Below are positions 3-33,723 of a stretch of DNA of 64,000 bases, one piece after another. Made by a program: the position numbers and the translations under genes. The stretch comes from a virus, in IMG/VR virus record IMGVR_UViG_3300009597_000014, positions 10,835 through 74,834 of that record. One strand, 5' to 3'. How positions within the stretch are numbered: the first letter of the stretch is position 1; each line of letters begins with the position of its first letter. A model generated the notes under the pieces. The model ran no database searches. It was not told the origin of the DNA and was given only the letters and a program-made list of their open reading frames with translations.

Positions 3-1793
3 CGACTCAATGGTCTTCGTGAGAGTTTTTATGCTTCTGCTCAACAAGCTCGAACAGAAGAAAAAAATGCTTATGATACTAATCGAGAAAAACGTAGACG
101 AGGTGGAACAGCACGAGAAGAAGATATAAAACTTGAAACAGATATTATAACAGCAGAACAAGGGTTAGAAACAGCTGAATCAGATGCTGTTACTAAAGCT
201 CTTGAACGTGCAGGTAAAGCAGAGAGCAACGAAGCTGCAGCATTTGTTTTAGAAAATAAGGAAAAAATCCTTAAGGGTTACCCAACTCCTCGAGAAATGT
301 TGTTGGCCGTTGATGCCCTTCCTGGTTCTACGCTAGGTAAAGCTGCATTAAAAGATGCCATAAAACAGGCAGAAACATCTATTCCCAATATGACTCCAGA
401 AGAGCTGGAGATTTTTAATTATGAAAGAAATCCCAATGCTCCTAGAGGACAACGTACTCGAACAGATGCAACTACTTTTGCGGGTGGATTTACTGATTTA
501 ATAACTGCTACGGAAAGTGGTCGTGGTGGTTATCGAGCTATGTACGGGCAAGCTCAGGATGACCCTAATAGTGAATATAATGGTCTTGATATTAGAACGA
601 TGTCAATTGCTCAGCTTGATAATCTAGCCAATGATGGTGGTTATAAAGCTTGGGTTGCTGCTCGTAATAACGGTGTTGAAGCCAGTCCATTTGGAAAATA
701 CCAAATCGTTAATAATACATTACAGGAAGCAGCTCGTGAATTAGGCTTGGATCCAAACACCAAGTTCGATGAAGCCACTCAGGATATGATCTTTAAACAT
801 CTCCTGGATAAACGGCTTGGTAGTGGACGAGGTGATATAAATGCTACATTAAAAGGTGTCCGTCAAGAATGGGAAGGTCTTAAGCGTGTCGATGACCAGA
901 CTCTGCTTAAAGCTATCCAGGATTACCAATCAGGTGCTGTTGCCCGAGACAGGATTGGTCCTCAAGGCAACCAGGCTCTTGATGCAGGTTTGAGTCTGGC
1001 CCTACAAGGCATTGGTGCTGGTAAGACTTATCCAATTGATGAGACTCGTGGTGAGGCAGCTACGAAATTTATTCAGGAAATCGTTGCCGATCCAGGACCC
1101 ATCGATCCTCAAAAGTGGGATATCGTAACTGATATCGTAGCTGAAGCAGATAATAGAGCAACTGCCCAAAATCAGAAATTGATGGCCGATAATATATTTG
1201 GTGGTAATATCCCTGGTTTGATGGCTGCTATTCAAGATCCTGCAAATCAAAACTTACTTTCATCTGCTGTAGCTAAACAATTAAAGGCTGCATACCCTGA
1301 TATGGATGAAGGAAATCTGACAACTGATCTTAATACTCTTTCTAAAGAATCTGGTCTTCAGCCTGGTATAGTAGCAGCCTTTATGTTGGCAGCTCCACAG
1401 GAAAATATGTGGCTTTTGTCAGATGCTGCTGGTATTCAGGATCCACGTAAAGTTAATATGGATGCAGTTAGAGATTTAATGAAAGAATTTGTTACACCCG
1501 GAGCAAGTTCTGGTGAAAATACAGCTGGAATAATGGCTCAGCTTGAACAGATCCGTGCCAAGACTGCGGCCAGTGGTGAACTTGCAGCTGTTCAACAAAG
1601 AGTCAGACAAGCTACTGCAGATCTGGCTCAGGCATCTTATCGTATAGCTCAGGGTGAAACACAACTCTCTGATAAAGCAGCAAAAATAAGACTTGAACAG
1701 GCTCTTGCAGCACAAGATGAATTAATTAAACGTATTGATGCTTCTTCAATATATAGTGCTCAGGGAGCTGGAGTAGGCGCCCAAGCACAATAA
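3..1793 (+). CDS. Virion (ejected) protein with lambda-R/GH24-like lysozyme/transglycosylase domain; 5'-truncated by window edge
   Basis: Frame is open from nt 3, so the true start is upstream. Motifs ES..GY...YG, GKYQI...TL, FD..TQD, QEWEGL are lysozyme-like. No Cys seen. Immediately upstream of vRNAP as in N4-like phages. Confidence 0.75.
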   Translation, partial: RLNGLRESFYASAQQARTEEKNAYDTNREKRRRGGTAREEDIKLETDIITAEQGLETAESDAVTKALERAGKAESNEAAAFVLENKEKILKGYPTPREMLLAVDALPGSTLGKAALKDAIKQAETSIPNMTPEELEIFNYERNPNAPRGQRTRTDATTFAGGFTDLITATESGRGGYRAMYGQAQDDPNSEYNGLDIRTMSIAQLDNLANDGGYKAWVAARNNGVEASPFGKYQIVNNTLQEAARELGLDPNTKFDEATQDMIFKHLLDKRLGSGRGDINATLKGVRQEWEGLKRVDDQTLLKAIQDYQSGAVARDRIGPQGNQALDAGLSLALQGIGAGKTYPIDETRGEAATKFIQEIVADPGPIDPQKWDIVTDIVAEADNRATAQNQKLMADNIFGGNIPGLMAAIQDPANQNLLSSAVAKQLKAAYPDMDEGNLTTDLNTLSKESGLQPGIVAAFMLAAPQENMWLLSDAAGIQDPRKVNMDAVRDLMKEFVTPGASSGENTAGIMAQLEQIRAKTAASGELAAVQQRVRQATADLAQASYRIAQGETQLSDKAAKIRLEQALAAQDELIKRIDASSIYSAQGAGVGAQAQ

Positions 1794-4800: not shown

Positions 4801-7800
4801 CAACAAAACAGGTGTTGGAGTTAAATTAGGAAATCCTGGTTCCGAGAACTTTGCCCGTCAGGTTCACAAGGAAGCGACCAGCCTTGTCGATCTAGCCAAT
4901 CAGATCATCAACCAGCATCCAGAGGCCAAGATTGAACCTCTGCCGACCCCGCCTGCTTTGAATTTACCGGAGGAAGGCTCGACAACCACCCAGCAAGAGA
5001 CACCACCTTCGGCTACCACGTCGAAGACAGCAGCTACTGAACAATTGGAGCCTCCCTCCGTCCCGGCAACTGGTGGGGTACCGGGAGCCATTGATACCAC
5101 AGCTCCCACAACCCAGACCAGTGCCCCTGCCGAGCTGACTCCTGAAGAAAAAGCCGAGCAGAAAAAGCTTCAAGATCCAAAACAAACGTCTGATGACGAA
5201 TTAATTAATCGTGTAAAGTTTTTTGATAGACAGGAAAAACAAAGCAAAACAAAAACATTAAGTCCTAATGCTACCAAAAGCCTGAAAGCTATTCACGAGG
5301 AAATAGCTCGTCGTAAGGCACTCAAAATTGAACCAGTGAAGGAAGAGACTCCTCCGTCTGTCACAGAGCCCGCAACATCCGCAACAGGCCAATCCAGATT
5401 CACCCCCGAAGAGCTCAGAAGCGATCCGGAATGGGAACAGGATGAAAGCCTGAGCGATGAGATGGATCGGATTGAGAAAAAAGAAAAACTCACTCCGGAT
5501 GATGAAGCCACTATCGAGGCTCTCCAGAAAGAAATGGATCGTCGTTATGACGAAGCCATAATCCAGGAAGAGCAGGAACAAACACCACCTGTTGAACAAA
5601 TAGTTGAACAGACACCCACCAAAAAAGTAATCAAATCTAAACGTAAACCCAAAACAGTAGCTAAATCCCTCCAGGATCTAAGCATTGTCCTTGAGACAAA
5701 GCCAACCGAACCAGAAACCAAACCCAAACTTGAACCAGTCGAAGAGGCAGTCGAGGAACCTGTAGGGGCTGAACCAGAATCCATTCCTCTGGATCAGGCC
5801 TATGAGAACCTGGCCGAGAGCAGCGAAGGCAATTATTTCCTGAAGGCTTATAAGCGAGGTAAGAAAATAGGCTCCCGTCTGATGACGGTAAAAAGTCCGT
5901 TGGCTGCTATGCGGAAAGCGCTGTCAGGACAGACAGCCTTGGCTCAGTTTGCTGGTGGAGATGCCCGTCTGCCAAGGCGTCTGCCTATATGGCAGGAATT
6001 TTTAACTGATACGGCAAATAAGATTACTACTAATTTTAAAACTCGTATGTATGGCATTATCAATTCTAAAGTGGATGAGAATGGTAATCCTAAAACTTCT
6101 TTCCTGGATCTTATGGATCAAGGTAGTCCATATAATCGATATATGAATTATAAAACCATGAATCTTCTGGAGAAGGTTGATGGTGTCTATGGGCTTAACA
6201 AGCAGCTTCTAGAGTCGGGTGTCCTGGCAGCCATGGACTGGCTGCTCAATGTTCAAGACCGTACTGTCAACCACAGTGCAGAGCGACTGGCTGCTGTGCT
6301 GGGCGTAGACGAGAACCTGATTGAACAGAGAACTCTCGACGAATGGAACCGTGGCATTGGCTTGAGTGAGGCCAAGCGATCCCTGGCTCAACAGCTGAAA
6401 AAGTTCTGGGACGTACAGGACAACAAAGACGTATCCGAGACCTACGTACAGGGCGTAGCCGAGGCTATGGCTCTTGAGCTCTTGGTCGCCATGGAGCAGA
6501 CAGGCCTTCTTAAAAATGGTGAGTTTGCAGAGCCTACACTCACTGAAAAAACATATAATATGGTTTATTTTGACAGGCGGTCAGACGATGACAAAGCCCT
6601 ATTAAACAAGCTTGGTGAAGAACGTAATACGATTTCTGATTTAGCTCTGGTAGATAAGCTTCGTAGTGGGCGCAGTGTCGGTGAACCAATCACTGAGGTT
6701 CCCCAGCACCTACTGTACAATCCCAACGTCAGCACAACGAACCAGCAGAAAAAAGCAGCCGGAAACGTACAAGCCACCAGGCATATGACCAATATGCCGA
6801 TGGTCAACTTCATGCGAGCATTGGGTCTTCAGAATTATATTAATGCACTGGGAGGCAGGCTTACCGATCCCAGAGTGACTGATCCAGAGAAGACCAATAT
6901 TAATGATGCTAGGTCCAAAGCAGGTGCTAATTTACAATTAACCAACAGTTATAATGGTATGCTGGCTCAGGTTGCTGAAGTTGAAGCCTATTCTGAAAGA
7001 ACAGGTATCCCGGTCAGTGAGGTACCCACCTTCTTCGAGTATGCGGTGCTCAGTATTGGACGCCTGCAGATGCGTGGCTTATTCAATGGTCAGGCCGACA
7101 AGCTGGCACGTAATATAGTGACTCCTGTCCGGGCCAAGATCGATCTTTCTCAGCCTGGTTCCCGTAAATTTTCTGACTTCATGCAGGCCATAGGCCAGGG
7201 CCTTGGAGCCAAGCCTGAAAGCAAATCACGTAGAGCTGTAACTGCTGCAGCCTTTGAAAAACTTAAATTCTATCGACCGATAATCGATGGAATTAAGGTC
7301 CATCTTCGGGATGAAAAGAAAGGATCTCTATCTCAGGATACGATCGATGCCCTTGTCAATCTGGCTCCTGAAGACAAGCTCACAGATCATGGTCTTCAGT
7401 CCCTGCTGGATTATGCCCGCTACGAGGTTTTACGTGAATCGAACCATGGGGATCTAACCCGGTTCGAGTCATGGAATTTCCTCGAGGCCGATGGCAAGAC
7501 CAATGGCCCGATCAATGCTCTCATGCTGTGGGCAGCAGGTGCGATCACTCCCAGGTTCCTGGATCTCGTCAACAAAGGTGGCATGTTCTTTGGGGCCAAT
7601 GACAAGACCCTCGATCAGCACGGAGACACAGTTGATCTCTATAAAGCCTCCGGTAATAAAGCCTCTGAGAAAGTCGGTCAGCTTCATGCTGCCATTAGGG
7701 ATGATAACAATCCCAAGGTCCTGGCTCAATTCAATGCCTTCAGACGGATTATGACAGCCCTTAATACCAATATCGTTCTTAAGGGCGACCAGATTGAAAT

Positions 7801-10800
7801 CTCTCGCGGCTTTGTCAAGAACCCATTAACCATTACGGTTTATGGTTCTGGGGCTAATGGTATAGCTATTAAGGCCACCAAAGAATTGACTGAATTTATT
7901 TATCAGAAGCTCAGTGAATCACTTCAGACAGGTGTAGTACCAGGAGATTTAATCTATAAGGATTATCCTGATAATTCTTTCCATGATGATCTGAGTTTGC
8001 TGTTAAGCAGGACACCTGACATATCCAAAGATAAAAAATTTGGTACTTATTATTTTACCCGTCCTGTCAAGCATGTTGCATTTGACAGAAAAGGCAAACC
8101 AGGCAGTGATGAATTCCTGAAAAACTTCACATTCAGCAAGACTGAATTTGATGCCCTGCGTGACAACGTACAGTTCTTTCTGACTGACCCCATGGTCAGT
8201 GCAATCACTGATGAAGTGATGAAAGAAATTGCTCCTGTCATCGAAGCCATCCAGCAAGCGACCCAGATCCAGTCGATCGTGGTTCGTAATATGTTCAGGA
8301 ATAAAGTTTTTGCCAAACTAGCTGATAAGCAGATTAATCCAAATAAATATCCTAATTATCATAAGGGAGATTTTCTTTCTCAGAATGAACTTAATGAGAT
8401 CTTTAATTCTCTTAAACAGTTCATGGCTGTCATCGATACAGGAACCCAGCGCTATCAGATTAACTCCCATGAAAGCGCTGACGTATTTGCCAAAGCAACC
8501 ATAACATATAACGGGCAGTCATATAATATCACCATGCCGGAATCGTTTGCTCGATCCCTGTCAGGTGACATGAAGGCTCCCATCTTTATGAACACACCCA
8601 ACCTGGCTGGTGTGAAGGCTATTCCCTATCTGAACATTGGTTCAGGTGATGGCCAGATGATGCTCCATGGCATGAGCATTGATATCCACAGGAGTGATAT
8701 CTCGAGGCGTACCCTGCCTGTGTTCGACGGTCTCAATATGCCGATCGATATGATCCTGGAATACTCCCGACTCATCAATGAGTCGGTATTCAAGACCTGG
8801 ACACAAAATTCTCCAATGCGGGCAATTGCCGAGTCATTCAGGACATTTGCCGAGAACCGCCCGATCCAGCAGGTACTCGATCCTGATAATGGTTTGAACC
8901 AGACAATAGATGACACCATCCTGGAAATGTCCAAGATCGAGGGGGGTTTCAAGCCTGAAAAGCTTATCGATCAGACCAGCATGGAAATGATGATTAATGA
9001 CCTGGTCCGCAAGCTTGAGGATTTCGCAGGTGATTTGGAAGACCGCCAGCAGGTGTACCGTGAAACCACCCAATCCATAGACCAGATGTCTTCAGGCAAA
9101 GGCCCTCATAACGTCAAGGGAACTGGTGCTCTTATTCTGGTTCCAGGCATGTCAAACCAGGAGATCGCCCATGCGATGGAAGCTCGACGTATCGAGTTGT
9201 CAAACATCAGGGCTGGTCACCGCAAGACAGCGCAGACAGCACCGGCAGTTGCACTGATCCCTGCAAGCACGCCTGTAGCGCAACTCACGCCTGCCATGCA
9301 GAAGGTTCTTGCCCTTGGCACCGAGGATGTATCCGGTACCCGTGTGATCCAGGCAGACCAGCTTCCTGATGTTATTAGGGCTCTTGGTTCCACGGTTGAT
9401 TCACAATTTGCCAGACAGCTGGTTAAAGCCATTGCCAAGGAATACCGGCTGGTTTTTGGTACACCTACCCAGTTGGATAACTGGGAGCGATCCAATAATG
9501 TTGATCGTTTCCAACCTGGTTCCAACGACAATGCTATGGGTAAAATCGACCCTGTAGCAAAAGTTATTCTTATCTCGAATTTGGTCCCAGAAACCATTAT
9601 CCATGAGCTGATCCATGCAGCTACGATCGACAAGGTAAGAGCCTATTATTCAAACCCAAGATCGCTTTCTCAAGAAGACCGTGATGCCATTCGACGTATC
9701 GAAGGCTTGATGAATGAATGGTTGACACTTGATTTCACCAATAATGACGAAATCATAGTTAACGCTCATCAGATGGCACAGTCATCCATTCTGGGTTGGA
9801 TGCGTAAAGGCGTAGCCGAAAACGAACCAAATAAATATATGGCTGAAGCTATTAATGAGTTTATGGCCTGGACATTATCGAACCAGGAGCTTCGTAATAA
9901 AGCCAGGACCCTTAAAAACTCAGCCTTCAGGATTCTCAAGGACACCCTTGAGGCTCTTAAAGCCTGGTTTGGCAAGAGTCTGAGAGTACCTAACAACCTC
10001 CTGGCTCAGCTGCAGTTCAACACCCGGATCCTGATTTCAACACCAACCGATCTGGACAATCTTAAGACCGATGCCAACTCGGTGACCCTATTTCAGTCGC
10101 CTACTTTTGGTAACAGCGATCGGCTGACCTATTTCAGAGAACGATTTAAGGAAAAAATCCTTACCTATATAAACGAAGGTGATCCTAATACCCTCGAAGG
10201 CTATCGCCAACGCTACCAGCGTTCCAACGAGATCCGGGCTGCCAGACAGGCAAGCCGGGATCTGACGATAGGCTTTGTCAGACAATTTGGTGATCTGAGA
10301 ACCATGCAGGCATGGGCCACCTTTTATGAGATGCAGGTAGGCCTGATGACCGAGCTGCAGCTTAATCCCAATTCACTGGCTCGCATGCAGGAACTCTATG
10401 ACCACGTCATCTCCAAGCTGGAAGTGACAGATTTCCGAATCAACAACGATCCTAATGATCAGGCCGACGAGGCACAGGCCCAAGGCAAATACGATGCAAT
10501 TCATGGTCTGCTGGTCAAGAAGACCGATCCCTATGGACGTAGTTCCCTGTTGAGCTCCTTCGTTTCATTGGCCATGAGCTCTGACATTTTCAGGGGAGTC
10601 CTTGCCAAGATCGACAAGCCCCCGACTGACAAAAGCACCACGACCAACACCATGGATCGGATCCTCGAGGACGCAGGCAACGCTTCCATTGATTGGCTTT
10701 CCCTGATGGCATCGGGTGAGAAATCCAAGGCCCATAATGTCCAGGAAGCGATGGACAATCTGGCGTCTGCAATGATCGAGAACGTAGGCGATCAACGCTC

Positions 10801-16013: not shown

Positions 16014-16745
16014 TTAACCGTGGTAAAACTTATCCAAATGATCCAGCAAGAGCTGAGCATCATTATCCATATAAGTTTGTTCCCGAGAAAACAAACCCAT
16101 AGGTGAGCGGATACGTTCGGCTACGGTTTCCTTGGTTGGACGAGTCTGGAACACATGCTTATATCCAAGCTCCCTGTCCTGGTCAGTGATAACCAGGAGA
16201 TCGGATCCATATTTTTCCAGTTCCAGCATGGTTATTTTCTTAGCTGATACTACTGTAGAAAAATATGATTCGATACCATTATTTTTAAGTGATCCCTTGA
16301 TGGGCACCGAGACTTTCATCTCATGCCTGACTTCATCCAGTGTATCCAGGAGATGGGCTGTAACGATGGTTGGCTTACCCCATCTGACGACCTTGTCTTG
16401 CATTAGCACCTTGAAGAATTGGGCAAACTGACCCCATGCCTTCTGGGTATTGGGATTATCTATGATGTACATGCTTTCATACATATCCATCATGAATGTG
16501 GCAGAATCTATGATTATGCCATCCCATTTATCCTGGTTCAGGATGGCATGATCAAAGCCTTCGTATATCTGATATGGGTCAGAGACTCTAAATGTTTTGA
16601 ATGTATTTTGAAAAGGGAGTCTCTTCCCAGCTTCGGTATTGAGATACATCCATCTATCCTGGTTCCGGATACTCCTCAGAGCTGCACTCTTACCGGTGCC
16701 TGAGTAGCCACCGATAAGAACTAATTGATCATTAATATCGCTCAT
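16014..16745 (-). CDS. AAA ATPase (N4 gp44 / Sak4-like)
   Basis: Walker A GYSGTGKS, Walker B IIIDS; synteny. Confidence 0.85.
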   Translation of the reverse strand: MSDINDQLVLIGGYSGTGKSAALRSIRNQDRWMYLNTEAGKRLPFQNTFKTFRVSDPYQIYEGFDHAILNQDKWDGIIIDSATFMMDMYESMYIIDNPNTQKAWGQFAQFFKVLMQDKVVRWGKPTIVTAHLLDTLDEVRHEMKVSVPIKGSLKNNGIESYFSTVVSAKKITMLELEKYGSDLLVITDQDRELGYKHVFQTRPTKETVAERIRSPMGLFSREQTYMDNDAQLLLDHLDKFYHG

Positions 16746-26981: not shown

Positions 26982-28009
26982 TTGGTGACTCCATATTCCT
27001 TGGTTACTGAACCAAGAGAAATATCTCCCCGGTTGTGATTCTTCTTCCACCAACGCTTGGCCCAGCAGCCTGGTACAGCGCATTCGTAGTGATCCTTGTC
27101 TATTGGCTGCCAGTCATGCTCGCAGTGCTTGCGGACCTTTCTAGTCTGGCACCAGTGACCCTTGACTGAGTGATAGCGATGACGCTGTCCAGTCTGCAGA
27201 TGCTGCTTGATCAGCTTCAGGCCTGGTCCCTGAGCCAGGTGCATGGTCACCTTGTGATGAGGTGCCAGAACACGCTGCTTGCCCTTGATGATGCTGTGTC
27301 TTCTCTCCTGGTTCGACAGGGAGATCACTCCTGAGCCAGGACGAGTGAGCAAGAGCAGCAAGGCTATCCCTTGCTTGAGAGAGCCAGCTCCAGATTCCAG
27401 CATGAGTTGTTTTTCGTAGGGGCTCCAATCCTCTTTATAAGCAAATTCAAGTGTATGGCTTCTGCAGAAATTGGTAGCTTCAGGTGTTTTGAACCAGTCA
27501 GGAGTAAGACCTTGGTCACCTAAAATAGCTTGTCTTAGGCCAAGCCTGGATAGACCTATATCTTGGGCCATAGTAAGTTCTTCTTCAAAGCTGATTGGTC
27601 GATGCAGTTTGAAGAAATAAGGCATCATATCTGGAACAGATGTTTGTGTTTCCGATGAAAAGAACATCGTATTTTCAAAATTAATAAAATAACCAACACG
27701 AGAATCGCTATTCTTATCGGTATCTCTTCCATCGAGACCTTTTAGATAACCAGCGAAATCTATTTCGATCCAGGTATTAGGATATGGAGCTCTAGCAAAC
27801 TCATGTTCCTGAAGAATCAACGAGCATATATCCCGGATCATGGTTCCAAGGAAAAAACTAGCTTCCCAATCCAGGACATATCGCTGAGCTTCTTTAAGGG
27901 GTTTGATTATTTTTTCAGTTACTTCACTAACTCGAGGAACTCGATGTAAACTTTTATTTACATGAATCATTGTATTATCATAGAGGGTAGGCGCATTTTT
28001 ACTATGCAT
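26978..28009 (-). CDS. Hypothetical protein with C-terminal H..KGHW / Cys motif
   Basis: 343-aa ORF with RBS; RYHSVKGHW...CEH...C..PGC. Confidence 0.65.
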   Translation of the reverse strand: MHSKNAPTLYDNTMIHVNKSLHRVPRVSEVTEKIIKPLKEAQRYVLDWEASFFLGTMIRDICSLILQEHEFARAPYPNTWIEIDFAGYLKGLDGRDTDKNSDSRVGYFINFENTMFFSSETQTSVPDMMPYFFKLHRPISFEEELTMAQDIGLSRLGLRQAILGDQGLTPDWFKTPEATNFCRSHTLEFAYKEDWSPYEKQLMLESGAGSLKQGIALLLLLTRPGSGVISLSNQERRHSIIKGKQRVLAPHHKVTMHLAQGPGLKLIKQHLQTGQRHRYHSVKGHWCQTRKVRKHCEHDWQPIDKDHYECAVPGCWAKRWWKKNHNRGDISLGSVTKEYGVTK

Positions 28010-28032
28010 TTTCTACCCTCCTATGTTAATGA

Positions 28033-28227
28033 TTATTTTTTCCTACCATGCTTACTGAAACCTTTGAGGGTCTGAGCAAATCTGGCTCTCTGGCCTATTT
28101 TGCCACCCTTCTTGGCAGCAGCAGCTAATTTTTTAGCTGGAATTTTTTCCCCTTGGGGAACACCTAAATCTCTATGAAGCTGCCCTGGTTTCTTAATTGC
28201 CTTTTTGATATTCAAACGCTTGGCCAT
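28033..28227 (-). CDS. Small highly basic protein
   Basis: IKKAIKKPGQLH.DLGVPQGEKIPAKKL...GQRARFAQTL; RBS AAGGAG. Confidence 0.7.
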   Translation of the reverse strand: MAKRLNIKKAIKKPGQLHRDLGVPQGEKIPAKKLAAAAKKGGKIGQRARFAQTLKGFSKHGRKK

Positions 28228-28267
28228 AGTTTGCTCCTTTTTTAAAGAGATAAACTTTCTAAGCATT

Positions 28268-28528
28268 TTATTTATTTTTAATTTCCATATTAATTACAAC
28301 ACACACGACCTTTGGTAGTTTCCATCCATGCGGTTCACGTTGCAAATCTGGGCGATTGCGGATGTAACCATACCGTTCATTGTTGAAACGTCTAGCTTCT
28401 TCTCTGGTGTAGAATAACCTTGTCCTACAAGGATGGCTGGCATCTCCATCCAGATATTCACGTTTGCCATCTAAATGATTTTCACTTTGCTGCAGGATAC
28501 CCCAGGTTAGAATAGATCGTTTATTCAT
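28268..28528 (-). CDS. Hypothetical protein
   Basis: ATGA-coupled; YIRNRPDLQREPHGWKLP. Confidence 0.6.
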   Translation of the reverse strand: MNKRSILTWGILQQSENHLDGKREYLDGDASHPCRTRLFYTREEARRFNNERYGYIRNRPDLQREPHGWKLPKVVCVVINMEIKNK

Positions 28529-28758
28529 CCCCTTGGTTCCTTTGTCAATGCAGTGTGAATAACAGCACGTAATTCATTAACCGACTTCATCAGCTGTTTC
28601 TGTCGATTTATATCACCACCTTCACGCTCTTCCATGCCTGCACTGAATGCTTTGTTTAAAATAATGGGAACGGTTGCTAGCATATCTAGTAGCTGGTCTC
28701 GTTCCTCCCGTAGTCGCCCATTCGCAAGCAGCGCGTCAGTGTACCGTTGGTTGCTCAT
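28525..28758 (-). CDS. Hypothetical protein (last of coupled array)
   Basis: ATGA overlaps at both ends; RLREERDQL segment. Confidence 0.6.
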   Translation of the reverse strand: MSNQRYTDALLANGRLREERDQLLDMLATVPIILNKAFSAGMEEREGGDINRQKQLMKSVNELRAVIHTALTKEPRG

Positions 28759-28904
28759 TTTATTTCATAGCGGGCAAAGCCAATAAACAGCCTCCCGTCC
28801 CTATTGTCGCGCCCACGCACCAGCCACCAGCGGCTTGGCCACAAGCGGACAAGTTTGCGAATACCGAGCAGCGTCGTTGCGTAGCCTGTGCGATGCAGCG
28901 GCAT
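28755..28904 (-). CDS. 49-aa array protein (not in ORF track)
   Basis: Hand translation MPLHRTGYATTLLGIRKLVRLWPSRWWLVRGRDNRDGRLFIGFARYEIK; TAATG and ATGA overlaps fit exactly. Confidence 0.5.
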   Translation of the reverse strand: MPLHRTGYATTLLGIRKLVRLWPSRWWLVRGRDNRDGRLFIGFARYEIK

Positions 28905-29104
28905 TAGCCCCCCTTCGCCAGCGCGGCGCGGGCCAAGTCACCGATGCTTCGCTCTTGGCTTCCCAGCTTCCAGCTTTCGTCATAGGTGTTGGCGATCTTC
29001 GTCAGCGCCTCGCGCAGCCGGTCGTTCTCGGCCCGAAGGTGTTGAAGATCGGCTTCCGAGCGTTCGACATAGTCGGCGAATTGTTGTTCCGTCAGGTCGC
29101 TCAT
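28904..29104 (-). CDS. Array protein (Ead/Ea22-like coiled coil)
   Basis: MSDLTEQ...LRAENDRLREALTKIA...ARAALAKGG. Confidence 0.65.
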   Translation of the reverse strand: MSDLTEQQFADYVERSEADLQHLRAENDRLREALTKIANTYDESWKLGSQERSIGDLARAALAKGG

Positions 29105-29271
29105 TTCCTTGCCTCCTTCGCCAGCGTGACATCGACGAACCGCACCGGCCACATCACGATGCGGCCATACACGGCAAGCGCCCGTTCGACCCAGTCCCGG
29201 CGATGGCTGGAGTAGATAGGTATCCACTGGCCCTCGATGAGAGCTTCCACGCGGTAAGTCAGCGGTCTCAT
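29101..29271 (-). CDS. 56-aa array protein (not in ORF track)
   Basis: Hand translation MRPLTYRVEALIEGQWIPIY...VDVTLAKEARK; ATGA overlaps at both ends. Confidence 0.6.
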   Translation of the reverse strand: MRPLTYRVEALIEGQWIPIYSSHRRDWVERALAVYGRIVMWPVRFVDVTLAKEARK

Positions 29272-29465
29272 TTCCCCGCCTCCTTCGCACGAAAAGGCGC
29301 CTTACAACTGAAACAATTCCAGCCGTTCTTTTTTGCAAGGCCAGCACTCGTTCGATGCTGGCAGGCTGTGTAGCGATAGCGGGGTTTGTCTTTACCCATT
29401 CCAGTTCTCAAGCTGTCACGATGTGCTGCGTCAGCCCACGATCTCCAACCTGGCATGTCGGTCAT
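29268..29465 (-). CDS. Array protein with Cys/His motif
   Basis: MTDMPGW...ACQH...CFSC...AKEAGK; start at ATGA overlap. Confidence 0.6.
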   Translation of the reverse strand: MTDMPGWRSWADAAHRDSLRTGMGKDKPRYRYTACQHRTSAGLAKKNGWNCFSCKAPFRAKEAGK

Positions 29466-29716
29466 GAGGAGGCTCCTGCTAGAGCGTCGAGGGCAATGCG
29501 CTCCATGCGCTCGATGATGCTGCCGGGCTTGATGTACTGCTTGCTTGGGCGCATATACGCGATGCTTGTCAGGGCCTCGCGCAGCCGGTTGCGCTCGGCG
29601 TGAATATCCCTCAAATATGCTTCGAGGATCGTCTCCGCGCCTTTGATTTCTATGGTGTGATCGGTTCTGAGCAGCAAATGCCCGCCGCATATTGTGCATG
29701 GCTTCAGGTCGCTCAT
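29462..29716 (-). CDS. Array protein with Lar-like LKPCxxCGG N-terminus
   Basis: MSDLKPCTICGG...AERNRLREALTSIA. Confidence 0.6.
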   Translation of the reverse strand: MSDLKPCTICGGHLLLRTDHTIEIKGAETILEAYLRDIHAERNRLREALTSIAYMRPSKQYIKPGSIIERMERIALDALAGASS

Positions 29717-29940
29717 TTCCCAGCCTCGAACTCAAGGTGTTTGATGAGGACAGCTTCAAGACGCCCGACGTTATTACGAATGTCCCTAAAATCGTTAGCT
29801 ATTTCGATCAGGTCGTGGCGTATTTCCTTCAATCGCAGACGAGCTTCGAGGATGTTAGTATTAATCGTTGACAAACAGTAATAAAGCAGACCAGTCGCCA
29901 TAACGATTACTACCAAAATGATAAGCGCGACTTCGGTCAT
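29713..29940 (-). CDS. Array membrane-anchored coiled-coil protein
   Basis: MTEVALIILVVIVMATGLLYY...FEAGK. Confidence 0.6.
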   Translation of the reverse strand: MTEVALIILVVIVMATGLLYYCLSTINTNILEARLRLKEIRHDLIEIANDFRDIRNNVGRLEAVLIKHLEFEAGK

Positions 29941-30239
29941 TGCCCTGCCTCCTTCGCCAGCGCTAGCCCGAGAGTGGCAATCCGCTTGACCCACTCCGGC
30001 GCACGCCGATGCTCGCTGATGATGGTCAGTGCTTCGCGCAGCCGGTCCCGCTCATCGCTTACCTCGGCCCAAAGCTGTTCAAAGCTGGCGTTCTTATCCA
30101 GCGCATCCTTGTATCTCTGAGTTTCATATTCGGCTTTCTCCAGTGCCTCACACAGCCGCTCGATCTTGGCTTCAAGTTCAGCGATCCGGTCGCGATATTC
30201 CTTGGTTTCCCATTGTTCGTCAGCGTTGTGTTGCGTCAT
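29937..30239 (-). CDS. Array coiled-coil protein
   Basis: RIAELEAKIERL...ERDRLREALT...ALAKEAGQ. Confidence 0.65.
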   Translation of the reverse strand: MTQHNADEQWETKEYRDRIAELEAKIERLCEALEKAEYETQRYKDALDKNASFEQLWAEVSDERDRLREALTIISEHRRAPEWVKRIATLGLALAKEAGQ

Positions 30240-30463
30240 TCCCCCGCCTCCTTCGCCAGCGCGGCACGAGCGATTTCGTTAGCGAACGCCCCGGCGCTGT
30301 ATGTTCCTACCCAGCCGTATGTCCCCTGCATTTTTGCGATGCGTGTCAGCGCATCACGCAGCTGCCTGATTTCAGCAAGCGACGCTGCTGGTTCGTGATA
30401 GGCTTCATCGTCCGTCATGGCCGAAGCGTCTTCTCGCCGTGGCATCACGCTTTCAACCCCCAT
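30236..30463 (-). CDS. Array protein (start uncertain)
   Basis: EIRQLRDALTRIA...IARAALAKEAGE. Confidence 0.55.
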   Translation of the reverse strand: MGVESVMPRREDASAMTDDEAYHEPAASLAEIRQLRDALTRIAKMQGTYGWVGTYSAGAFANEIARAALAKEAGE

Positions 30464-30519
30464 GGCTGGCGATCATCCGGGCGGTAGGCCGGGTTCGGAA
30501 GAAGTTCATGTTGGGCTCC

Positions 30520-30846
30520 TCAGAAAGGGATTTCGTCGTCGGCGACGCGCCGTCTACGCGGCGCCGCTTTGATCGTCTTCGTCCGTTCTGCCGCCTCCTC
30601 TGAGGTTCCTGATTTGAGAGCGGCCTGCAAAACAAGCCGCGCATTGTGTCCCGGCATCCTCGCTGGACTGCCGTAAGTGCGCTCAAGAAGCAGGTCTACT
30701 GCTTCCGTCATCGCACCCCGTAGCCGGTCGCGTTCGGCCTCTGCTTCAAGGACACGCTTCCACGCATTTTGCGCATCGTCCAGGGCACGTTCCAGATCGG
30801 ACAGTCGCACCCATACCTCACCATCTTCCTCGATGGTTCGTTTCAT
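30520..30846 (-). CDS. Array protein ending in SSB-like tail DDEIPF
   Basis: Start MKRTIEE at ATGA overlap; AERDRLRGA segment. Confidence 0.6.
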   Translation of the reverse strand: MKRTIEEDGEVWVRLSDLERALDDAQNAWKRVLEAEAERDRLRGAMTEAVDLLLERTYGSPARMPGHNARLVLQAALKSGTSEEAAERTKTIKAAPRRRRVADDEIPF

Positions 30847-31166
30847 TTCCTCACCTCCTTCGCCAGTGCCACGCGGGCGATTACGCCAATTCCACCCAGT
30901 ATATGCGGGTGTGCTTCCGACCATCCGTTGATCTTCTCAAGCGCCTCACGTAGTTGCTCGTTCTCGGCCTTAGCTTCGTCACGCTGGCGCAGAGCCATGT
31001 CGGTCATCTTCTTCCAGACGCGCCTAACATTGCTATCGGTCTTACTTTCGAAGGCGACTTTCCAGTCGTCCCGTTCCTTCACCAACCGGTCGTTCTCGGC
31101 TCGGAGGGCTTTGCAATCAGCCTCGGCTGCGTCGTAAGCAGCTTCGTAAATGTTGATGTCGTTCAT
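30843..31166 (-). CDS. Array coiled-coil protein
   Basis: LRAENDRL...AENEQLREALEKI...IARVALAKEVRK. Confidence 0.65.
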   Translation of the reverse strand: MNDINIYEAAYDAAEADCKALRAENDRLVKERDDWKVAFESKTDSNVRRVWKKMTDMALRQRDEAKAENEQLREALEKINGWSEAHPHILGGIGVIARVALAKEVRK

Positions 31167-31399
31167 TTCCCCGCCTCCTTTACCGTCGCGACCTTGGCAA
31201 TACGTCTTGCTTCATGCGGATCGTCCAGCCAATTCAGTTCTGCGATTTTTTCCAGTGCTTTGCGCAATTGGTCGTTCTCAGCCTCAAGTTTGGCAATACG
31301 ATTTCGAGCGGTCCAGATGGCAGTGGCAAGTGTTTTCATTGTCTTGTCCCGCTTAATCTTTTGACCGTAATTATATGCTGTATCCTCTAATTTATTCAT
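31163..31399 (-). CDS. First array protein (start uncertain)
   Basis: LEAENDQLRKALEKIA...VKEAGK. Confidence 0.6.
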   Translation of the reverse strand: MNKLEDTAYNYGQKIKRDKTMKTLATAIWTARNRIAKLEAENDQLRKALEKIAELNWLDDPHEARRIAKVATVKEAGK

Positions 31400-32654
31400 T
31401 GAGGTGAACAATCTGGCCTTGAGCCACTTTAGCATCTCGATTATTAAGAGCGACCCAGATAATAGGTATATTTAATCCCGGTGGTAATGGTTCCATTGGA
31501 TCACATTCCAGATCCGAGAATATCACCACAGCTGTTGGTTCGTTCTTGACGATCCATTCCCTGACACAGACGAGAGACGTACCTCCTCGGCCTGTGATCT
31601 TGATCTCATCGAAGGGATCGTCCTTAAGGAACACATCTTCCTGTTGGATCTGGGTGTCAAACTGCACCATAGTCAGCTTCTCGGGCTGATAGGTGTCTTT
31701 GACGTATTTGAACTCCGAGTTGAAACGGATGCTATCGCCATCACTAATGGAACCAGAGACATCCTGGAAATTCACAATGTGGTCCAACCCCTGACGATCA
31801 TCGACCAAGCCGGGAAGGTAGATGTCCTGGTAGCGCCTATTGGGCCGCATCCAGCTGTAATCCAGGTTGGCCAGCTCATTGAAGAACTGGTGGAGGATCC
31901 TGTCCCAAGGTAATTTTGGTGACAGGAAGCGCTTGAGAGTGATCTGTACCTCTCCAGGCATATCTCCCGCACCACCAGAGATCGCAGCGGTATGGGCTGC
32001 AGAGACAACATTGTTGATGACTGTATGTTCGATCGACTTCTGGTCATCGATGCTCTCGGCCTCTATGATATCACCCGAATCACCCTCTCCAGTTTCCTCG
32101 TCAGTGTGACCCCACATAAACTTGGGAAAGGTAGTTTTTAGTTCCTCTAGCTCTTCGTCGCGTCTGCGAACCAGGTCGTCATAAACAGCCTCAGTGACCC
32201 ACCCGTCATACCGGTGATCGAGCCATGGTTTGAGACCCTCGAACGAATGGCCCTCGAGATCGAGCATATTATTGATGACGATATCGCCAGCCAGATTCCA
32301 AAGGTAGGGTTCCCTGGTTCCTCTTCTGAGCATATGCAGCAGACCAGGATGCCAGAGCTCGTGCAACAGGACGGTGCCTCTGGACTTGGGTTTGGTCTTC
32401 AAGAAGAACCGCGGATTCCACAGGAGTCTGATTCCGTTGGTGCAGGCAGTAGCGATGTCGACTGTCCATGAAAAATTCATGGAGCACATCAATGGACCCA
32501 GGAAGGCTGCGTTCTTACCCAAAAAAACCTTCGATTTGACCCGATCCAGTTCCCGATCCAGAAGCCGATAATTGAGCTCCGGTAATGGTTTCTTCTTTTT
32601 CTGGTTCGCTTTGATCAGTTCCGGTGTCATTACCGTCATCGACAATGTCGTCAT
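31392..32654 (-). CDS. Metallopeptidase-like + vWA domain protein (N4 gp25-like)
   Basis: TACTNG, HELWH, WNLAGD.VIN; MIDAS DVSGS, GGTS, FSD. Confidence 0.85.
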   Translation of the reverse strand: MTTLSMTVMTPELIKANQKKKKPLPELNYRLLDRELDRVKSKVFLGKNAAFLGPLMCSMNFSWTVDIATACTNGIRLLWNPRFFLKTKPKSRGTVLLHELWHPGLLHMLRRGTREPYLWNLAGDIVINNMLDLEGHSFEGLKPWLDHRYDGWVTEAVYDDLVRRRDEELEELKTTFPKFMWGHTDEETGEGDSGDIIEAESIDDQKSIEHTVINNVVSAAHTAAISGGAGDMPGEVQITLKRFLSPKLPWDRILHQFFNELANLDYSWMRPNRRYQDIYLPGLVDDRQGLDHIVNFQDVSGSISDGDSIRFNSEFKYVKDTYQPEKLTMVQFDTQIQQEDVFLKDDPFDEIKITGRGGTSLVCVREWIVKNEPTAVVIFSDLECDPMEPLPPGLNIPIIWVALNNRDAKVAQGQIVHLNE

Positions 32655-33723
32655 GGAGATACCTCGAGAGTTCAACCATCGCTGCTCTGAAAGCAGGATG
32701 ACGTTTCATTTGTGGTTTCTGAACCATCAGAGCCCGGAAAAACAGGATTCTAAACTCAGATCCAAGCCTGTTGATGTAAATAGAAATATCAGCCAAATTA
32801 TCATTAGCTACATTTTCTATCAAATAGGTAACAGTTGCCCATTTGGTGGAGCTATCAGCAGGAAGCCTGGTTCCAATTGGATCCTTGATGATTTCTTTTA
32901 GCTTAGGCAATGATTCATAAACTTTAGTAAAATTGATAAAATCAGTAGCTACTCCAGAGGTAATAGCACCTGCATAAAGAGCAGCCTCTTCCTCCATCTC
33001 ATAGAAGGAGGATCCATCAGCCCTGGTTCGGGTTTTGAATTCCTTGCCTTTAATAAGCTTGTTCATGAATTCCCAGGTTCTGGGAGCACAGAAAGTCTTA
33101 TCATTATGGTCAGGTCTAAAATCATGCAATAATGCTTTCTTCATATTCAAGAAAGCCACAATTCGACCATCCCAGGCAAACCTAAGAGCCACGTCTTCCA
33201 TGAACTCATCAAAATTGAGCTCCATGGTCAGATGGATCAATCTTGACTGCATGGCAGTGGAGAGGGGATTAACAATCGATCGGTCGGTCGTAAGGTTACC
33301 CGCACAAACGATAACGACATTGGAGTGGAGCTTACGGAGCCCAACCATTTTGTCGAGGACAAGTTTGTAGGCTGCAGCCTGAACCATCTTTGAGGCTGCA
33401 TTGAACTCGTCCAGGAATAACATCCATCCTTGGTAACCATCGGGAATAGGAGTCCCCTCAACTGGGAAATTTTCGAATGGAATGAAGCTGGCACTTCTTT
33501 CTGTTAGCTTAGGCAGGCCAGACAGATCTTCCGGGGCTGATGTGCTCAGCCTATGGTCTATCATCTTCAGGTTAAATTCCTTGGCAATCTCAGCCACGAT
33601 GGCACTCTTGCCCATGGCAGGAGAGGATTGCACAAAGGGAACCAGGCCTGAGAACATGCACCTGATGATGTATTTTTTGACCTGTCTGGGGGTACAGGTG
33701 TAGGCACTCAAGCCTGCAGCCAT
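32515..33723 (-). CDS. MoxR-like AAA ATPase (N4 gp24-like)
   Basis: SSPAMGKS, LFLDEFN, AGN, PRTW; paired with vWA protein. Confidence 0.85.
   Translation of the reverse strand: MAAGLSAYTCTPRQVKKYIIRCMFSGLVPFVQSSPAMGKSAIVAEIAKEFNLKMIDHRLSTSAPEDLSGLPKLTERSASFIPFENFPVEGTPIPDGYQGWMLFLDEFNAASKMVQAAAYKLVLDKMVGLRKLHSNVVIVCAGNLTTDRSIVNPLSTAMQSRLIHLTMELNFDEFMEDVALRFAWDGRIVAFLNMKKALLHDFRPDHNDKTFCAPRTWEFMNKLIKGKEFKTRTRADGSSFYEMEEEAALYAGAITSGVATDFINFTKVYESLPKLKEIIKDPIGTRLPADSSTKWATVTYLIENVANDNLADISIYINRLGSEFRILFFRALMVQKPQMKRHPAFRAAMVELSRYLHDDIVDDGNDTGTDQSEPEKEETITGAQLSASGSGTGSGQIEGFFG

Follow-up and report, generated by a model that had tools for sequence, protein, structure and literature searches.

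A phage with an N4-like backbone from freshwater sediment carries a GC-rich array of about 2.9 kb, in which ATGA or TAATG overlaps link 12 ORFs on the minus strand (28525-31399). We consider it probable that this array is a translationally coupled accessory operon, in which two conserved islands of 30-47 nt, one at the gene junctions and one inside the genes, act as short-homology crossover points. All positions refer to the analysed stretch of 64,000 nt (the window) and the features are compiled in Table 1. A coupled array of about 12 genes had been recognised in the initial annotation and proved to be real.

Table 1. Features of the array and its surroundings in the window (amino acid tails are followed directly by the stop codon; D1 and D2, repeat families of box and junction)
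Feature	Position	Strand	Remarks
AAA_24 ATPase, candidate enzyme for short-homology exchange	16014..16745	-	Pfam PF13479, E 5e-8, above curated cut-off
Resident backbone gene after the array	28268..28528	-	homologue directly follows gp25 in closest relative
ATGAATAAA, downstream copy; start of resident post-array gene	28520..28528	-	
Last array gene, chimera; degenerate tail TKEPRG	28525..28758	-	
49-aa Trp/Arg-rich mini-gene cassette	28755..28904	-	84-85% nucleotide identity to other phage lineages
Array gene 10, family member, best profile fit; tail ALAKGG, TAATG overlap	28904..29104	-	
56-aa protein, non-family; full junction, tail TLAKEARK	29101..29271	-	
Cys/His-rich 65-aa protein, non-family; full junction core, tail RAKEAGK	29268..29465	-	
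Array gene 7, family member; N-terminal CxxC; degenerate tail ALAGASS	29462..29716	-	
Small transmembrane (TM) protein, non-family; partial junction FEAGK	29713..29940	-	
Array gene 5, family member; tail LALAKEAGQ	29937..30239	-	
Array gene 4, family member; tail AALAKEAGE	30236..30463	-	
Array gene 3, family member; 30-aa C-terminal extension, without junction	30520..30846	-	56-nt gap after
Array gene 2, family member; tail ALAKEVRK	30843..31166	-	
Array gene 1, family member; AT-rich N-module; tail VKEAGK	31163..31399	-	box ~31247-31276
ATGAATAAA, upstream copy; gp25 stop overlap and gene 1 start	31391..31399	-	
gp25-like metallopeptidase/VWA gene, N4-like backbone	31392..32675	-	Pfam DUF2201_N and DUF2201
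Junction copy, end of 56-aa gene	29101..29127	-	D2, exact core, 27-mer search
Junction copy, end of Cys/His gene	29268..29293	-	D2, exact core
Junction copy	29937..29963	-	D2, exact core, 27-mer search
Junction copy	30236..30265	-	D2, exact core, 27-mer search
Junction copy	30843..30868	-	D2, exact core, 27-mer search
Junction copy	31163..31188	-	D2, exact core
Internal box, reference copy AENDRLREALTKIA	28992..29037	-	D1
Further boxes	29559-29604, 30016-30061, 30130-30175, 30336-30381	-	D1
Further boxes	30698-30743, 30928-30973, 31242-31287, ~28678-28707	-	

Insertion of the array into an N4-like backbone

The whole array is an insertion and presumably represents a horizontally acquired accessory operon. 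The inserted block (28529-31390) lies between the next backbone gene and a gp25-like gene, whose product shares 47-49% identity with gp25 of N4 and Rhizobium phages and whose final codons run into the beginning of array gene 1. In the closest relative (L018, 79% gp25 identity), gp25 itself overlaps the homologue (ORF 9211-9660) of window gene 28268-28528. The 9-bp direct repeat ATGAATAAA flanks a block of 2871 bp, L018 holds a single equivalent of it (ATGAGTAAG), and the array borders fall at an ATGA overlap. Apart from one weak match, the main protein family of the array was not found in five complete related N4-like phages. As already annotated, the block is more GC-rich than its flanks: most array genes reach 0.54-0.61, with lower values for the TM gene and two edge modules, compared with 0.47 across the window and 0.40 in the pair of genes that directly follow the array, and both GC and GC3 rise inside the block. 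The last array gene has its GC-rich N-module and its box in common with the array of L023, whereas its C-module is AT-rich, with a resident-like GC3 of 0.33 compared with 0.55 in the N-module.

From gene 1 to the post-array gene, ATGA overlaps account for 10 of the 12 joints, next to one TAATG overlap (28904) and one 56-nt gap (30464-30519). In line with the dual use proposed initially, the tail codons AAG GAG GCG GGG (A/C)AA TGA are at the same time the Shine-Dalgarno (SD) sequence, the spacer and the overlapping ATG of the next cistron, and AAGGAGG is found 7 nt ahead of the ATG at six joints. Stop/start overlaps with an SD sequence inside the upstream ORF, a hallmark of operon coupling, are present at the array joints. 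A scan for sigma70-like promoters and intrinsic terminators, which left N4-type middle promoters aside, returned none on the minus strand within the array, and all 12 ORFs are co-oriented. Since the tail codons double as the next SD, spacer and ATG, the array is most likely translated as one coupled chain, which would be read without internal promoters or terminators.

The junction, the internal box and their carriers

The junction core AAGGAGGnnnGGnAATGA ends six array genes, compared with 0.04 expected by chance in shuffles. Searched on the plus strand (TCATTNCCNNNCCTCCTT), it has six exact matches (29101, 29268, 29937, 30236, 30843 and 31163), all of them gene ends within the array. The 27-mer of the initial annotation, with up to 3 mismatches, gave four matches against none expected, a repeat search collected seven copies, and the consensus reads GCGAAGGAGGCGGGGMAATGA. 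Eight genes had been credited with the junction; six of the copies are strong and the remainder consists of two to three degenerate ones (FEAGK at 29713, TKEPRG at 28525 and ALAKGG at 28904).

Codon choice points to a constraint on the junction at synonymous sites, so that conservation goes beyond the protein level alone. The Gly codon in the tail is GGG in 16 of 18 cases, compared with 21% in gene bodies, and the final codon at family-type junctions is AAA, CAA or GAA, A-ending at every ATGA overlap, with AAG and CAG as the usual codons (~80%) in GC-rich arrays; these counts are not independent, since the junction copies are related by descent. The sole CAG final codon is that of the terminal gene in the L009 array, where no start overlaps.

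Eight of the 12 array genes belong to one unnamed paralogous family (8 matches in a profile search, all within the array). These two thirds of the array encode hyper-mosaic helix-loop-helix proteins of 60-110 aa (AF2 model of array gene 10, pLDDT 85), laid out as a variable N-terminus, an AE(N/R)DRLREAL box, ~15 residues and the tail ARAALAKEAG(K/Q), and the junction is the C-terminal tail of this family itself. Some 70 or more metagenomic relatives exist, and the family has no name in Pfam, PHROGs or PADLOC. As to function, our guess is an accessory or host-interaction role.

The earlier statement that the repeat is not just paralogy has to be qualified by this family origin, but it holds insofar as the junction is found on family and non-family genes, always ahead of an ATG. 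Among the three non-family carriers named at the time, the Cys/His and 56-aa genes bear the full core and the TM gene only a part of it (GAGGCTGGGAAATGA). A homologue of the Cys/His gene product (P0080, 58% identity) ends in RAHQEFQR without the junction tail, a variant of the 56-aa protein (P0081, 96% identity) has all four differences within the last 10 residues, and a TM protein homologue (P0085, 40% identity) also ends in LEAGQ. Array genes 3 and 7 sit in the array without a consensus junction, which counts against our preferred explanation. A variant of gene 3 (P0023) carries a junction-like tail at its end instead of the extension, and in gene 7 AGGAG precedes the ATGA despite the degenerate tail. 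For the 49-aa mini-gene, a depth peak was seen in metagenome contigs.

Besides the junction, a second repeat, an internal box of 46 nt (8 copies), is at least as prominent. It is 89-93% identical over 41-47 nt to the boxes of two other phages (L007 and L009), and the junction at 30236..30265 is 87-92% identical over 38-47 nt to the junctions of the same two phages.

Shared tracts and the origin of the mosaicism

This junction and box are not confined to the N4-like phage: arrays in at least four further lineages of unrelated phages (L009/L005, L007, L023-L026 and L029) contain them too, and L007 among these has an integrase. These arrays differ in gene content and order and have the junction in common at the nucleotide level, so the expectation that it recurs across phages was borne out. 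In every array comparison the shared tracts end at a junction or a box, a pattern drawn from about five independent tracts and in part a detection bias, since alignments of diverged relatives always start and stop at conserved islands. The match of window positions 28907-28691 to L023 begins at the ATG that opens the 49-aa gene and stops at the box, positions 28914-28765 match L007 from junction to junction, and L007 and L009 share two tracts from junction to box (6765-6944 with 587-787 and 5907-6039 with 1578-1710); outside these tracts, matches between arrays are junction or box islands only. Neither a fixed gene content nor breakpoints unrelated to the repeat were encountered. Among 97 family proteins, 78 pairs are alike in the N-module only, 136 in the C-module only and 24 in both. 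Logan contigs, which are short and of low depth, lend weak support: their joints and loose ends concentrate at boxes and junctions. The shorter side measures 80 nt for one joint (31181 to 29101), and for most joints the sides measure only 20-30 nt.

Junction and box are kept near-identical in DNA (30-47 nt, 87-100%) between genes and between phages that have no other DNA in common. According to our proposal, they would serve as the points at which relaxed homologous recombination crosses over when phages co-infect a cell or infect lysogens. Cassettes would be exchanged from junction to junction and half-genes from junction to box or from box to box, and unrelated small genes may be captured and then inherit the tail. 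The box may be used as a crossover point as much as or more than the junction. The exchange is possibly performed by the AAA_24 ATPase of the phage, a Pfam family (PF13479) which we take to contain the Sak4-type recombinases. The junction had been described initially as a portable handle for expression and recombination; its position at tract ends and its presence in other lineages agree with this description, and we infer the causal part, namely that homology at junction and box would bring about crossovers rather than merely survive recombination. In a more far-reaching version, which appears possible but rather doubtful to us, junction and box would be maintained as two fixed joints in a combinatorial scheme (order of parts: constant, variable, constant, variable, constant). 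With its help, phages from different lineages but with a common pool of hosts would assemble new small coiled-coil effectors and cassette orders, and each product of short-homology recombination would be pre-equipped for coupled translation, as a recombinase-independent analogue of integrons or antigenic-variation loci at the level of protein modules and operons.

The proposed role of the islands as crossover points has to be weighed against an account that we regard as unlikely, in which there is only paralogue expansion with translational coupling, recombination is not caused by the repeat, the junction is kept as a family C-terminus and a good ribosome-binding site, and random illegitimate recombination is joined by selection that retains only exchanges at gene borders. 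Such recombination, with selection for intact genes, would likewise place tract ends at gene borders, and mosaic borders in phage genomes generally lie at gene boundaries. The paralogy of eight genes fits as well, and what the downstream start requires fully accounts for both AAGGAG and a last codon ending in A. However, selection for intact genes does not predict intragenic tract ends precisely in the box, and the massive module incongruence, the 56-aa gene variants differing in the tail only, and a G-rich spacer (GGG) that is frozen in non-family genes too and is unneeded for rRNA pairing or coupling all speak against this account.

Compatible with crossovers at the islands rather than exclusive of them, though improbable in our view, is a junction bound by a protein or RNA factor, of phage or host origin, that controls how the entire set is translated. 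Across unrelated genes and phages, conservation of the spacer CGGGG(A/C)A and of the AGCGA(C) after it goes past the needs of SD and start, and the start-associated sequences (SAS) of mycobacteriophages follow the same logic, such a factor being proposed in excerpts of the report on them (PMC3203893). No candidate factor was found, however, and since the phages between which the array moved have unrelated backbones, only a host factor or one encoded in the array would qualify; the box and the tract ends are left unexplained. An integron-like site-specific system with an unrecognised recombinase acting at the junction is highly improbable: small, apparently promoterless cassettes in a single orientation, with a repeated site between them, recall it, but the complete 74.8-kb genome holds no tyrosine integrase (PF00589: 0 matches, controls positive), an inverted-repeat scan of 28500-31450 gave five unrelated pairs with no inverted repeat or hairpin at a junction, which by reading is non-palindromic, the site lies within coding sequence, exchange also at the box, a different motif, fits homology better than site specificity, and the flanking repeat ATGAATAAA is resident sequence and not a junction copy. 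The initial annotation was thus right that no integrase is adjacent, but its comparison with an integron array falls with the missing integrase and attC-type inverted repeats.

Relation to known systems and implications

The closest precedents are SAS and the PeSL (promoter-early stem-loop) cassettes that T4-type phages carry in hyperplastic regions (Arbiol et al., 2010, PMC2839356; PMC4122927). In both PeSLs and the array, a short repeated expression signal lies between small, mostly ORFan accessory genes and supplies a captured gene with its expression signal. Recombination between PeSL copies accounts for what related phages have inserted, deleted or replaced relative to one another, and the PeSL hallmark of genome differences bounded by repeats is also seen in the array. 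In contrast, a PeSL is an intergenic transcription signal (strong sigma70 early promoter plus stem-loop terminator), whereas the array repeat is a translation signal in the last codons of the upstream gene; between array genes no PeSL-type promoter with stem-loop was found, the repeat consisting of SD, spacer and ATGA. Mini-circles have been shown for PeSLs, whereas the array is known from assembled sequence alone, and only the array has a second, intragenic box that apparently also recombines.

The SAS/ESAS of Cluster K mycobacteriophages (Pope et al., 2011, PMC3203893) are, in the excerpts of that report, conserved asymmetric motifs with an SD core a few bases before the ATG. Like the junction, they accompany genes of different families and are conserved past rRNA pairing, and they lie in the non-structural part of the genome. 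This likeness, pointed out at the outset, does not extend to sequence: the SAS given in these excerpts, a 13-mer (GGGATAGGAGCCC) that precedes the start by 3-7 bp, has only the GGAG core in common with the junction. Within the same excerpts, SAS are mostly intergenic and are not reported as recombination end-points, and they lack the link with one paralogous family and with ATGA overlaps that the junction has.

For phage annealing proteins (Rad52-like, Sak, Sak4), short diverged homologies suffice for recombination between unrelated phages and of lytic with temperate ones, according to excerpts of PMC5499656, PMC5928155 and PMC8093625, and mosaicism is the outcome in those of PMC5499656 and PMC8093625. 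The N4-like phage resembles such systems in its Sak4-type AAA_24 ATPase. They constitute a general mechanism, however, and not a defined array, and this enzyme would be a candidate for acting on the array repeats. Lambdoid Ead/Ea22-like proteins (PF13935) are likewise small mosaic coiled-coil accessory proteins of an early or non-essential region. Membership, which the initial precedent could suggest, was rejected: PF13935 matched neither 10 array proteins (E <=0.1) nor 22 family members (E <=1), and the family is therefore not part of Ead/Ea22. A cluster bearing Ead_Ea22 came up in a protein atlas as a distant lead (score 0.82).

If our reading is true, the array would be a clean natural example of phages that trade and rebuild very small accessory genes. 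A single island of 30-47 nt would be protein tail, ribosome-binding site and next start codon in one, and it would maintain the expression of captured genes and provide homology for a subsequent exchange, while the second island inside the genes would allow half-gene swaps. This would extend the PeSL idea from transcription to translation signals and add intragenic joints, in a case where cassettes pass between phages of the temperate type and an N4-like phage that is strictly lytic. The family is a candidate for a fast-diversifying host-interaction or counter-defence function, which is directly screenable.

Anatomy of the array and its protein family

The array consists of 12 ORFs lying head to tail. 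Of its 12 joints, ten are overlaps of the ATGA type and one of the TAATG type; the remaining joint, after gene 3, is a 56-nt gap (genes are numbered in the direction of transcription). The junction core AAGGAGGnnnGGnAATGA occurs in six exact copies in 64 kb, each at an array gene end, against an expectation of 0.04; a longer 27-mer of the junction gave four matches where none is expected, and degenerate copies are found at another two to three gene ends. The block is mostly at a GC content of 0.54-0.61, above that of the window as a whole (0.47) and of the next two genes downstream (0.40). We found no integrase in the phage genome and no promoter-like or terminator-like site within the array. 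These results uphold the initial annotation of a GC-rich array of coupled mini-genes with a repeated junction and without an integrase.

The strongest repeat is an internal box of 46 nt, present in eight copies and stronger than the junction. Eight of the 12 products align as one family with a variable N-terminus, the box AE(N/R)DRLREAL.KIA, about 15 residues and the tail I-A-R-A-A-L-A-K-E-A-G-(K/Q)-stop, and all eight matches of the family profile in the genome lie within the array. The junction is therefore primarily the C-terminal end of the family itself: the earlier statement that it is not just paralogy holds for the non-family genes that carry it too, but gave paralogy too little weight. 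Among metagenome proteins the family has about 78 matches, a handful of them from this phage itself and nearly all with the same tail, and identical or near-identical copies of array proteins are present on 13-17 contigs per protein. Scans of metagenome and genome contigs with the family profile gave two and one loci only, as coiled-coil pattern matches swamped the output. Pfam, PHROGs and PADLOC hold no real model for the family and returned coiled-coil noise only. The AlphaFold model of one member is a confident helix-loop-helix (pLDDT 85), a generic helical hairpin, for which Foldseek found nothing below E 0.98 in the PDB and no informative structural neighbour. Membership in Ead/Ea22, named in the initial annotation as a partial precedent, was tested for the family and rejected.

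Two metagenome proteins deserve mention. P0033 (140 aa) seems to join, in one frame, a start of the gene 1 type (MSRLEDTAYNYGAKIK) to a full-length protein of the gene 2 type that begins at its own MSD, and the junction between them appears to be read through or deleted. P0023 is a variant of gene 3 and ends at a junction-like tail, ALKAEEVGK, where the window copy carries a 30-aa basic extension (…KAAPRRRRVADDEIPF); the latter seems to have lost or bypassed its junction. The gap behind gene 3, the sole one in the array, has GAGGAG after the gene 3 stop and a possible 18-codon micro-ORF (MNFFRTRPTARMIASHGG) whose stop overlaps the region of the gene 4 start, and one groundwater contig differs around it.

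Features of the window and of the arrays compared (window positions unless a contig is named)
Feature	Position	Strand	Remark
Array	31399 to 28525	-	
Gene 3	30520-30846	-	
Gap after gene 3	30451-30519	-	
Variant segment, groundwater contig	30424-30518		replaced by 25 other letters
Trp/Arg-rich mini-gene (…RLWPSRWWLVRGRDNR…)	28755-28904	-	48-51 aa; also L007 6625-6771, L023 3001-3156
gp25-like metallopeptidase/VWA gene	31392-32675	-	47-49% identity to N4 gp25 and Rhizobium phage homologues
AAA_24 (PF13479) ATPase	16014-16745	-	score above Pfam cut-off
Site ATGAATAAA	31391-31399 and 28520-28528		2871 bp apart
Resident gene beyond the array	28268-28528		homologue follows gp25 in L018
Match, window to L023	28907-28691		84%; start ATG of 49-aa gene to inside next gene's box
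Match, window to L007	28914-28765		85%; junction to junction
Matches, L007 to L009	6765-6944 to 587-787; 5907-6039 to 1578-1710		83-87%; junction to box
Logan joints and loose ends at boxes	29001-29033; 30034-30061		short, low-depth contigs
Logan joints and loose ends at junctions	28904; 30236-30270; 29101/31181		short, low-depth contigs
Non-family gene with fused box	L023 2660-3001		…WVSASTM…GWRLETN…
Counterpart of the fused gene	L007 6344-6625		plain MSDNYEVRV start
Junction-like gene end	L004 901-923		…RLAKEAG* and overlapping start

An insertion in an N4-like phage

The virus record is 74.8 kb long with direct terminal repeats, and the window covers 64 kb of it. A 3884-aa ORF of the size of a virion RNA polymerase and the gp25-like gene identify it as an N4-like phage. 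The same DNA is contained in 24 sequencing runs from freshwater sediment and groundwater, and nucleotide searches of the phage collection, in near and distant modes, gave no match. Five complete N4-like relatives (gp25 56-79% identical) hold no family member apart from one weak match. In L018, the closest of them, the gp25 end ...AATGAGTAA overlaps the start of the homologue of the resident gene that in the window lies beyond the array, and in the window the same site, ATGAATAAA, is found twice, once on each side. We conclude that the array has been inserted; if a donor molecule, circular or linear, recombined at the resident ATGA-type overlap, a repeat of just this kind would be expected on both flanks.

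By composition, the array seems to have two layers. In the last gene, the C-module (the part after the box) resembles the resident genes with a GC3 of 0.33, and in gene 1 the N-module (the part before the box) is resident-like as well, with a GC of 0.40; everything between the two boxes is GC-rich. More speculatively, a GC-rich segment may have inserted later into the box of an older family gene that was already resident, splitting it in two.

The junction at the DNA level

The non-family carriers vary in how they hold the tail. The Cys/His gene ends in RAKEAGK, and its sole homologue (58% identity, same length class) in RAHQEFQR. The 56-aa gene has a variant of 96% identity in which all four residue differences fall in the last ten (DAPLAKEAGE vs DVTLAKEARK in the window), as if one junction had been swapped for another. 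A second variant is called in a shifted frame; its alternative-frame peptide suggests an upstream neighbour ending in xALAKEAGK instead of the Cys/His gene. The TM gene ends in EAG(K/Q), and so does its homologue, which has 40% identity. On L004, another viral contig, a junction-like sequence ends a non-family gene, and the gene that follows is DNA-methyltransferase-like by eye.

Conservation of the junction goes beyond the protein level, and the free synonymous change that would have spoken against the initial annotation was not what we saw in codon counts from 24 array genes of three phages. For the tail glycine, 16 of 18 codons are GGG, whereas GGG accounts for 21% of the glycine codons in these genes' bodies, and the lysine of KE is always AAG. 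Where the following ATG overlaps, the final codon always has A in third position (AAA, CAA or GAA at family-type junctions), whereas AAG and CAG otherwise make up about 80% in the GC-rich arrays; the sole final CAG belongs to the gene that closes the L009 array, with no start overlapping it. AAGGAG and xxA-TGA are accounted for by translation starting at the following cistron. The G-rich spacer has no complementarity to the 3' end of 16S rRNA and is common to the non-family genes too; we take it to reflect a junction that has been homogenised, or inherited from a common source, as one piece of DNA.

Exchange between arrays and its possible mechanism

Junction and box recur in four further phage lineages: L009/L005, a GC-rich contig on which seven coupled genes precede a lysozyme-like gene and a terminase; L007, a 44.7-kb contig with an integrase; L023-L026, which include an 82-kb contig and where the array follows a 494-aa gene that by eye is SNF2-type-helicase-like; and L029 (52% GC), with the exact 22-nt junction between two non-family genes. 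Gene content and order differ among these arrays. The longer tracts of similarity begin and end at junctions, at a start ATG or within boxes (table), and outside them the arrays match one another only in isolated islands of 30-47 nt, each a junction or a box, with 86-100% identity. The main competing explanation, that the repeats merely mark places where selection tolerates junctions, is in our view rather improbable, as both the end-points in intragenic boxes and the frozen spacer argue against it. Splitting 97 family proteins at the box gave 78 pairs similar in the N-module only, 136 in the C-module only and 24 in both, and this incongruence requires repeated recombination at the box. Besides, in L023 a box (ERDRLREA) is fused in frame to the N-terminus of a non-family gene whose L007 counterpart has a plain start, so the box can be grafted onto unrelated bodies.

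In the metagenomes, the joints and loose ends of short, low-depth Logan contigs pile up at boxes and junctions, which we count as weak support. Many of the joints with a short side are no more than other members of the family; those with sides of 20-22 nt, and uncovered parts, were left out of the evidence. A joint from 31181 to 29101, with a shorter side of 80 nt, would put the 56-aa gene before gene 2. Assembly chimeras at the repeats are unlikely because these are shorter than the 31-letter Logan index word.

At least three phage lineages, unrelated to each other, share the 49-aa mini-gene at 84-85% nucleotide identity; a stretch of 38 nt is the same in the window and in L007. The mini-gene is preceded by a family gene in the window and by a different, non-family gene in L007 and L023, and followed by the MS(N/D)QRYTDALLANG gene (window, L023) or the MSDINTGRTG gene (L007), which in L009 has yet another neighbour; in every context its start and stop overlaps are coupled. 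A 3-5-fold peak in metagenome contig depth over it suggests the most promiscuous cassette of the array set. The viral-contig scan did not return an exact 37-mer of this element that is visibly present in L007, so negatives from that scan do not mean absence. A non-coding RNA was rejected: in the frame of the ORF, substitutions fall preferentially at third codon positions, the overlaps are kept, folding z-scores are +1.2 and -0.4, and an Rfam search of 28000-32000 returned nothing.

In this context, the junction might be a site for a regulatory factor, as proposed for the mycobacteriophage SAS; we give this little credence, and it is compatible with the recombination reading. The SAS account describes a conserved SD-containing motif before the ATG of unrelated genes, a likeness to the junction, but sequence, setting and evidence for exchange all differ from it (PMC3203893). 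The integron-like reading of the initial annotation, as a site-specific system, is rejected, given no integrase, no hairpin sites and two different joints. The closest mechanistic counterpart is the PeSL cassette of T4-type phages, in which repeated promoter-terminator units recombine with one another, so that ORFans are shuffled and mini-circles produced (PMC2839356; PMC4122927); in contrast, the unit of the array is translational and embedded in coding sequence, and its second joint lies inside genes.

Taken together, we consider it probable that the array combines a coupled polycistron, a tail acting as initiation signal and repeats acting as preferred points of short-homology crossover. 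The AAA_24 ATPase, with which the earlier mention of a Sak4-like recombinase agrees, would be a plausible catalyst of the Sak4 type; phage annealing proteins such as Sak4 are described as recombining short, diverged homologies and generating mosaics (PMC5499656, PMC8093625). The family tail would thereby supply the initiation signal for each next gene, and the near-identical junction and box would offer preferred crossovers with the arrays of co-infecting phages or prophages.
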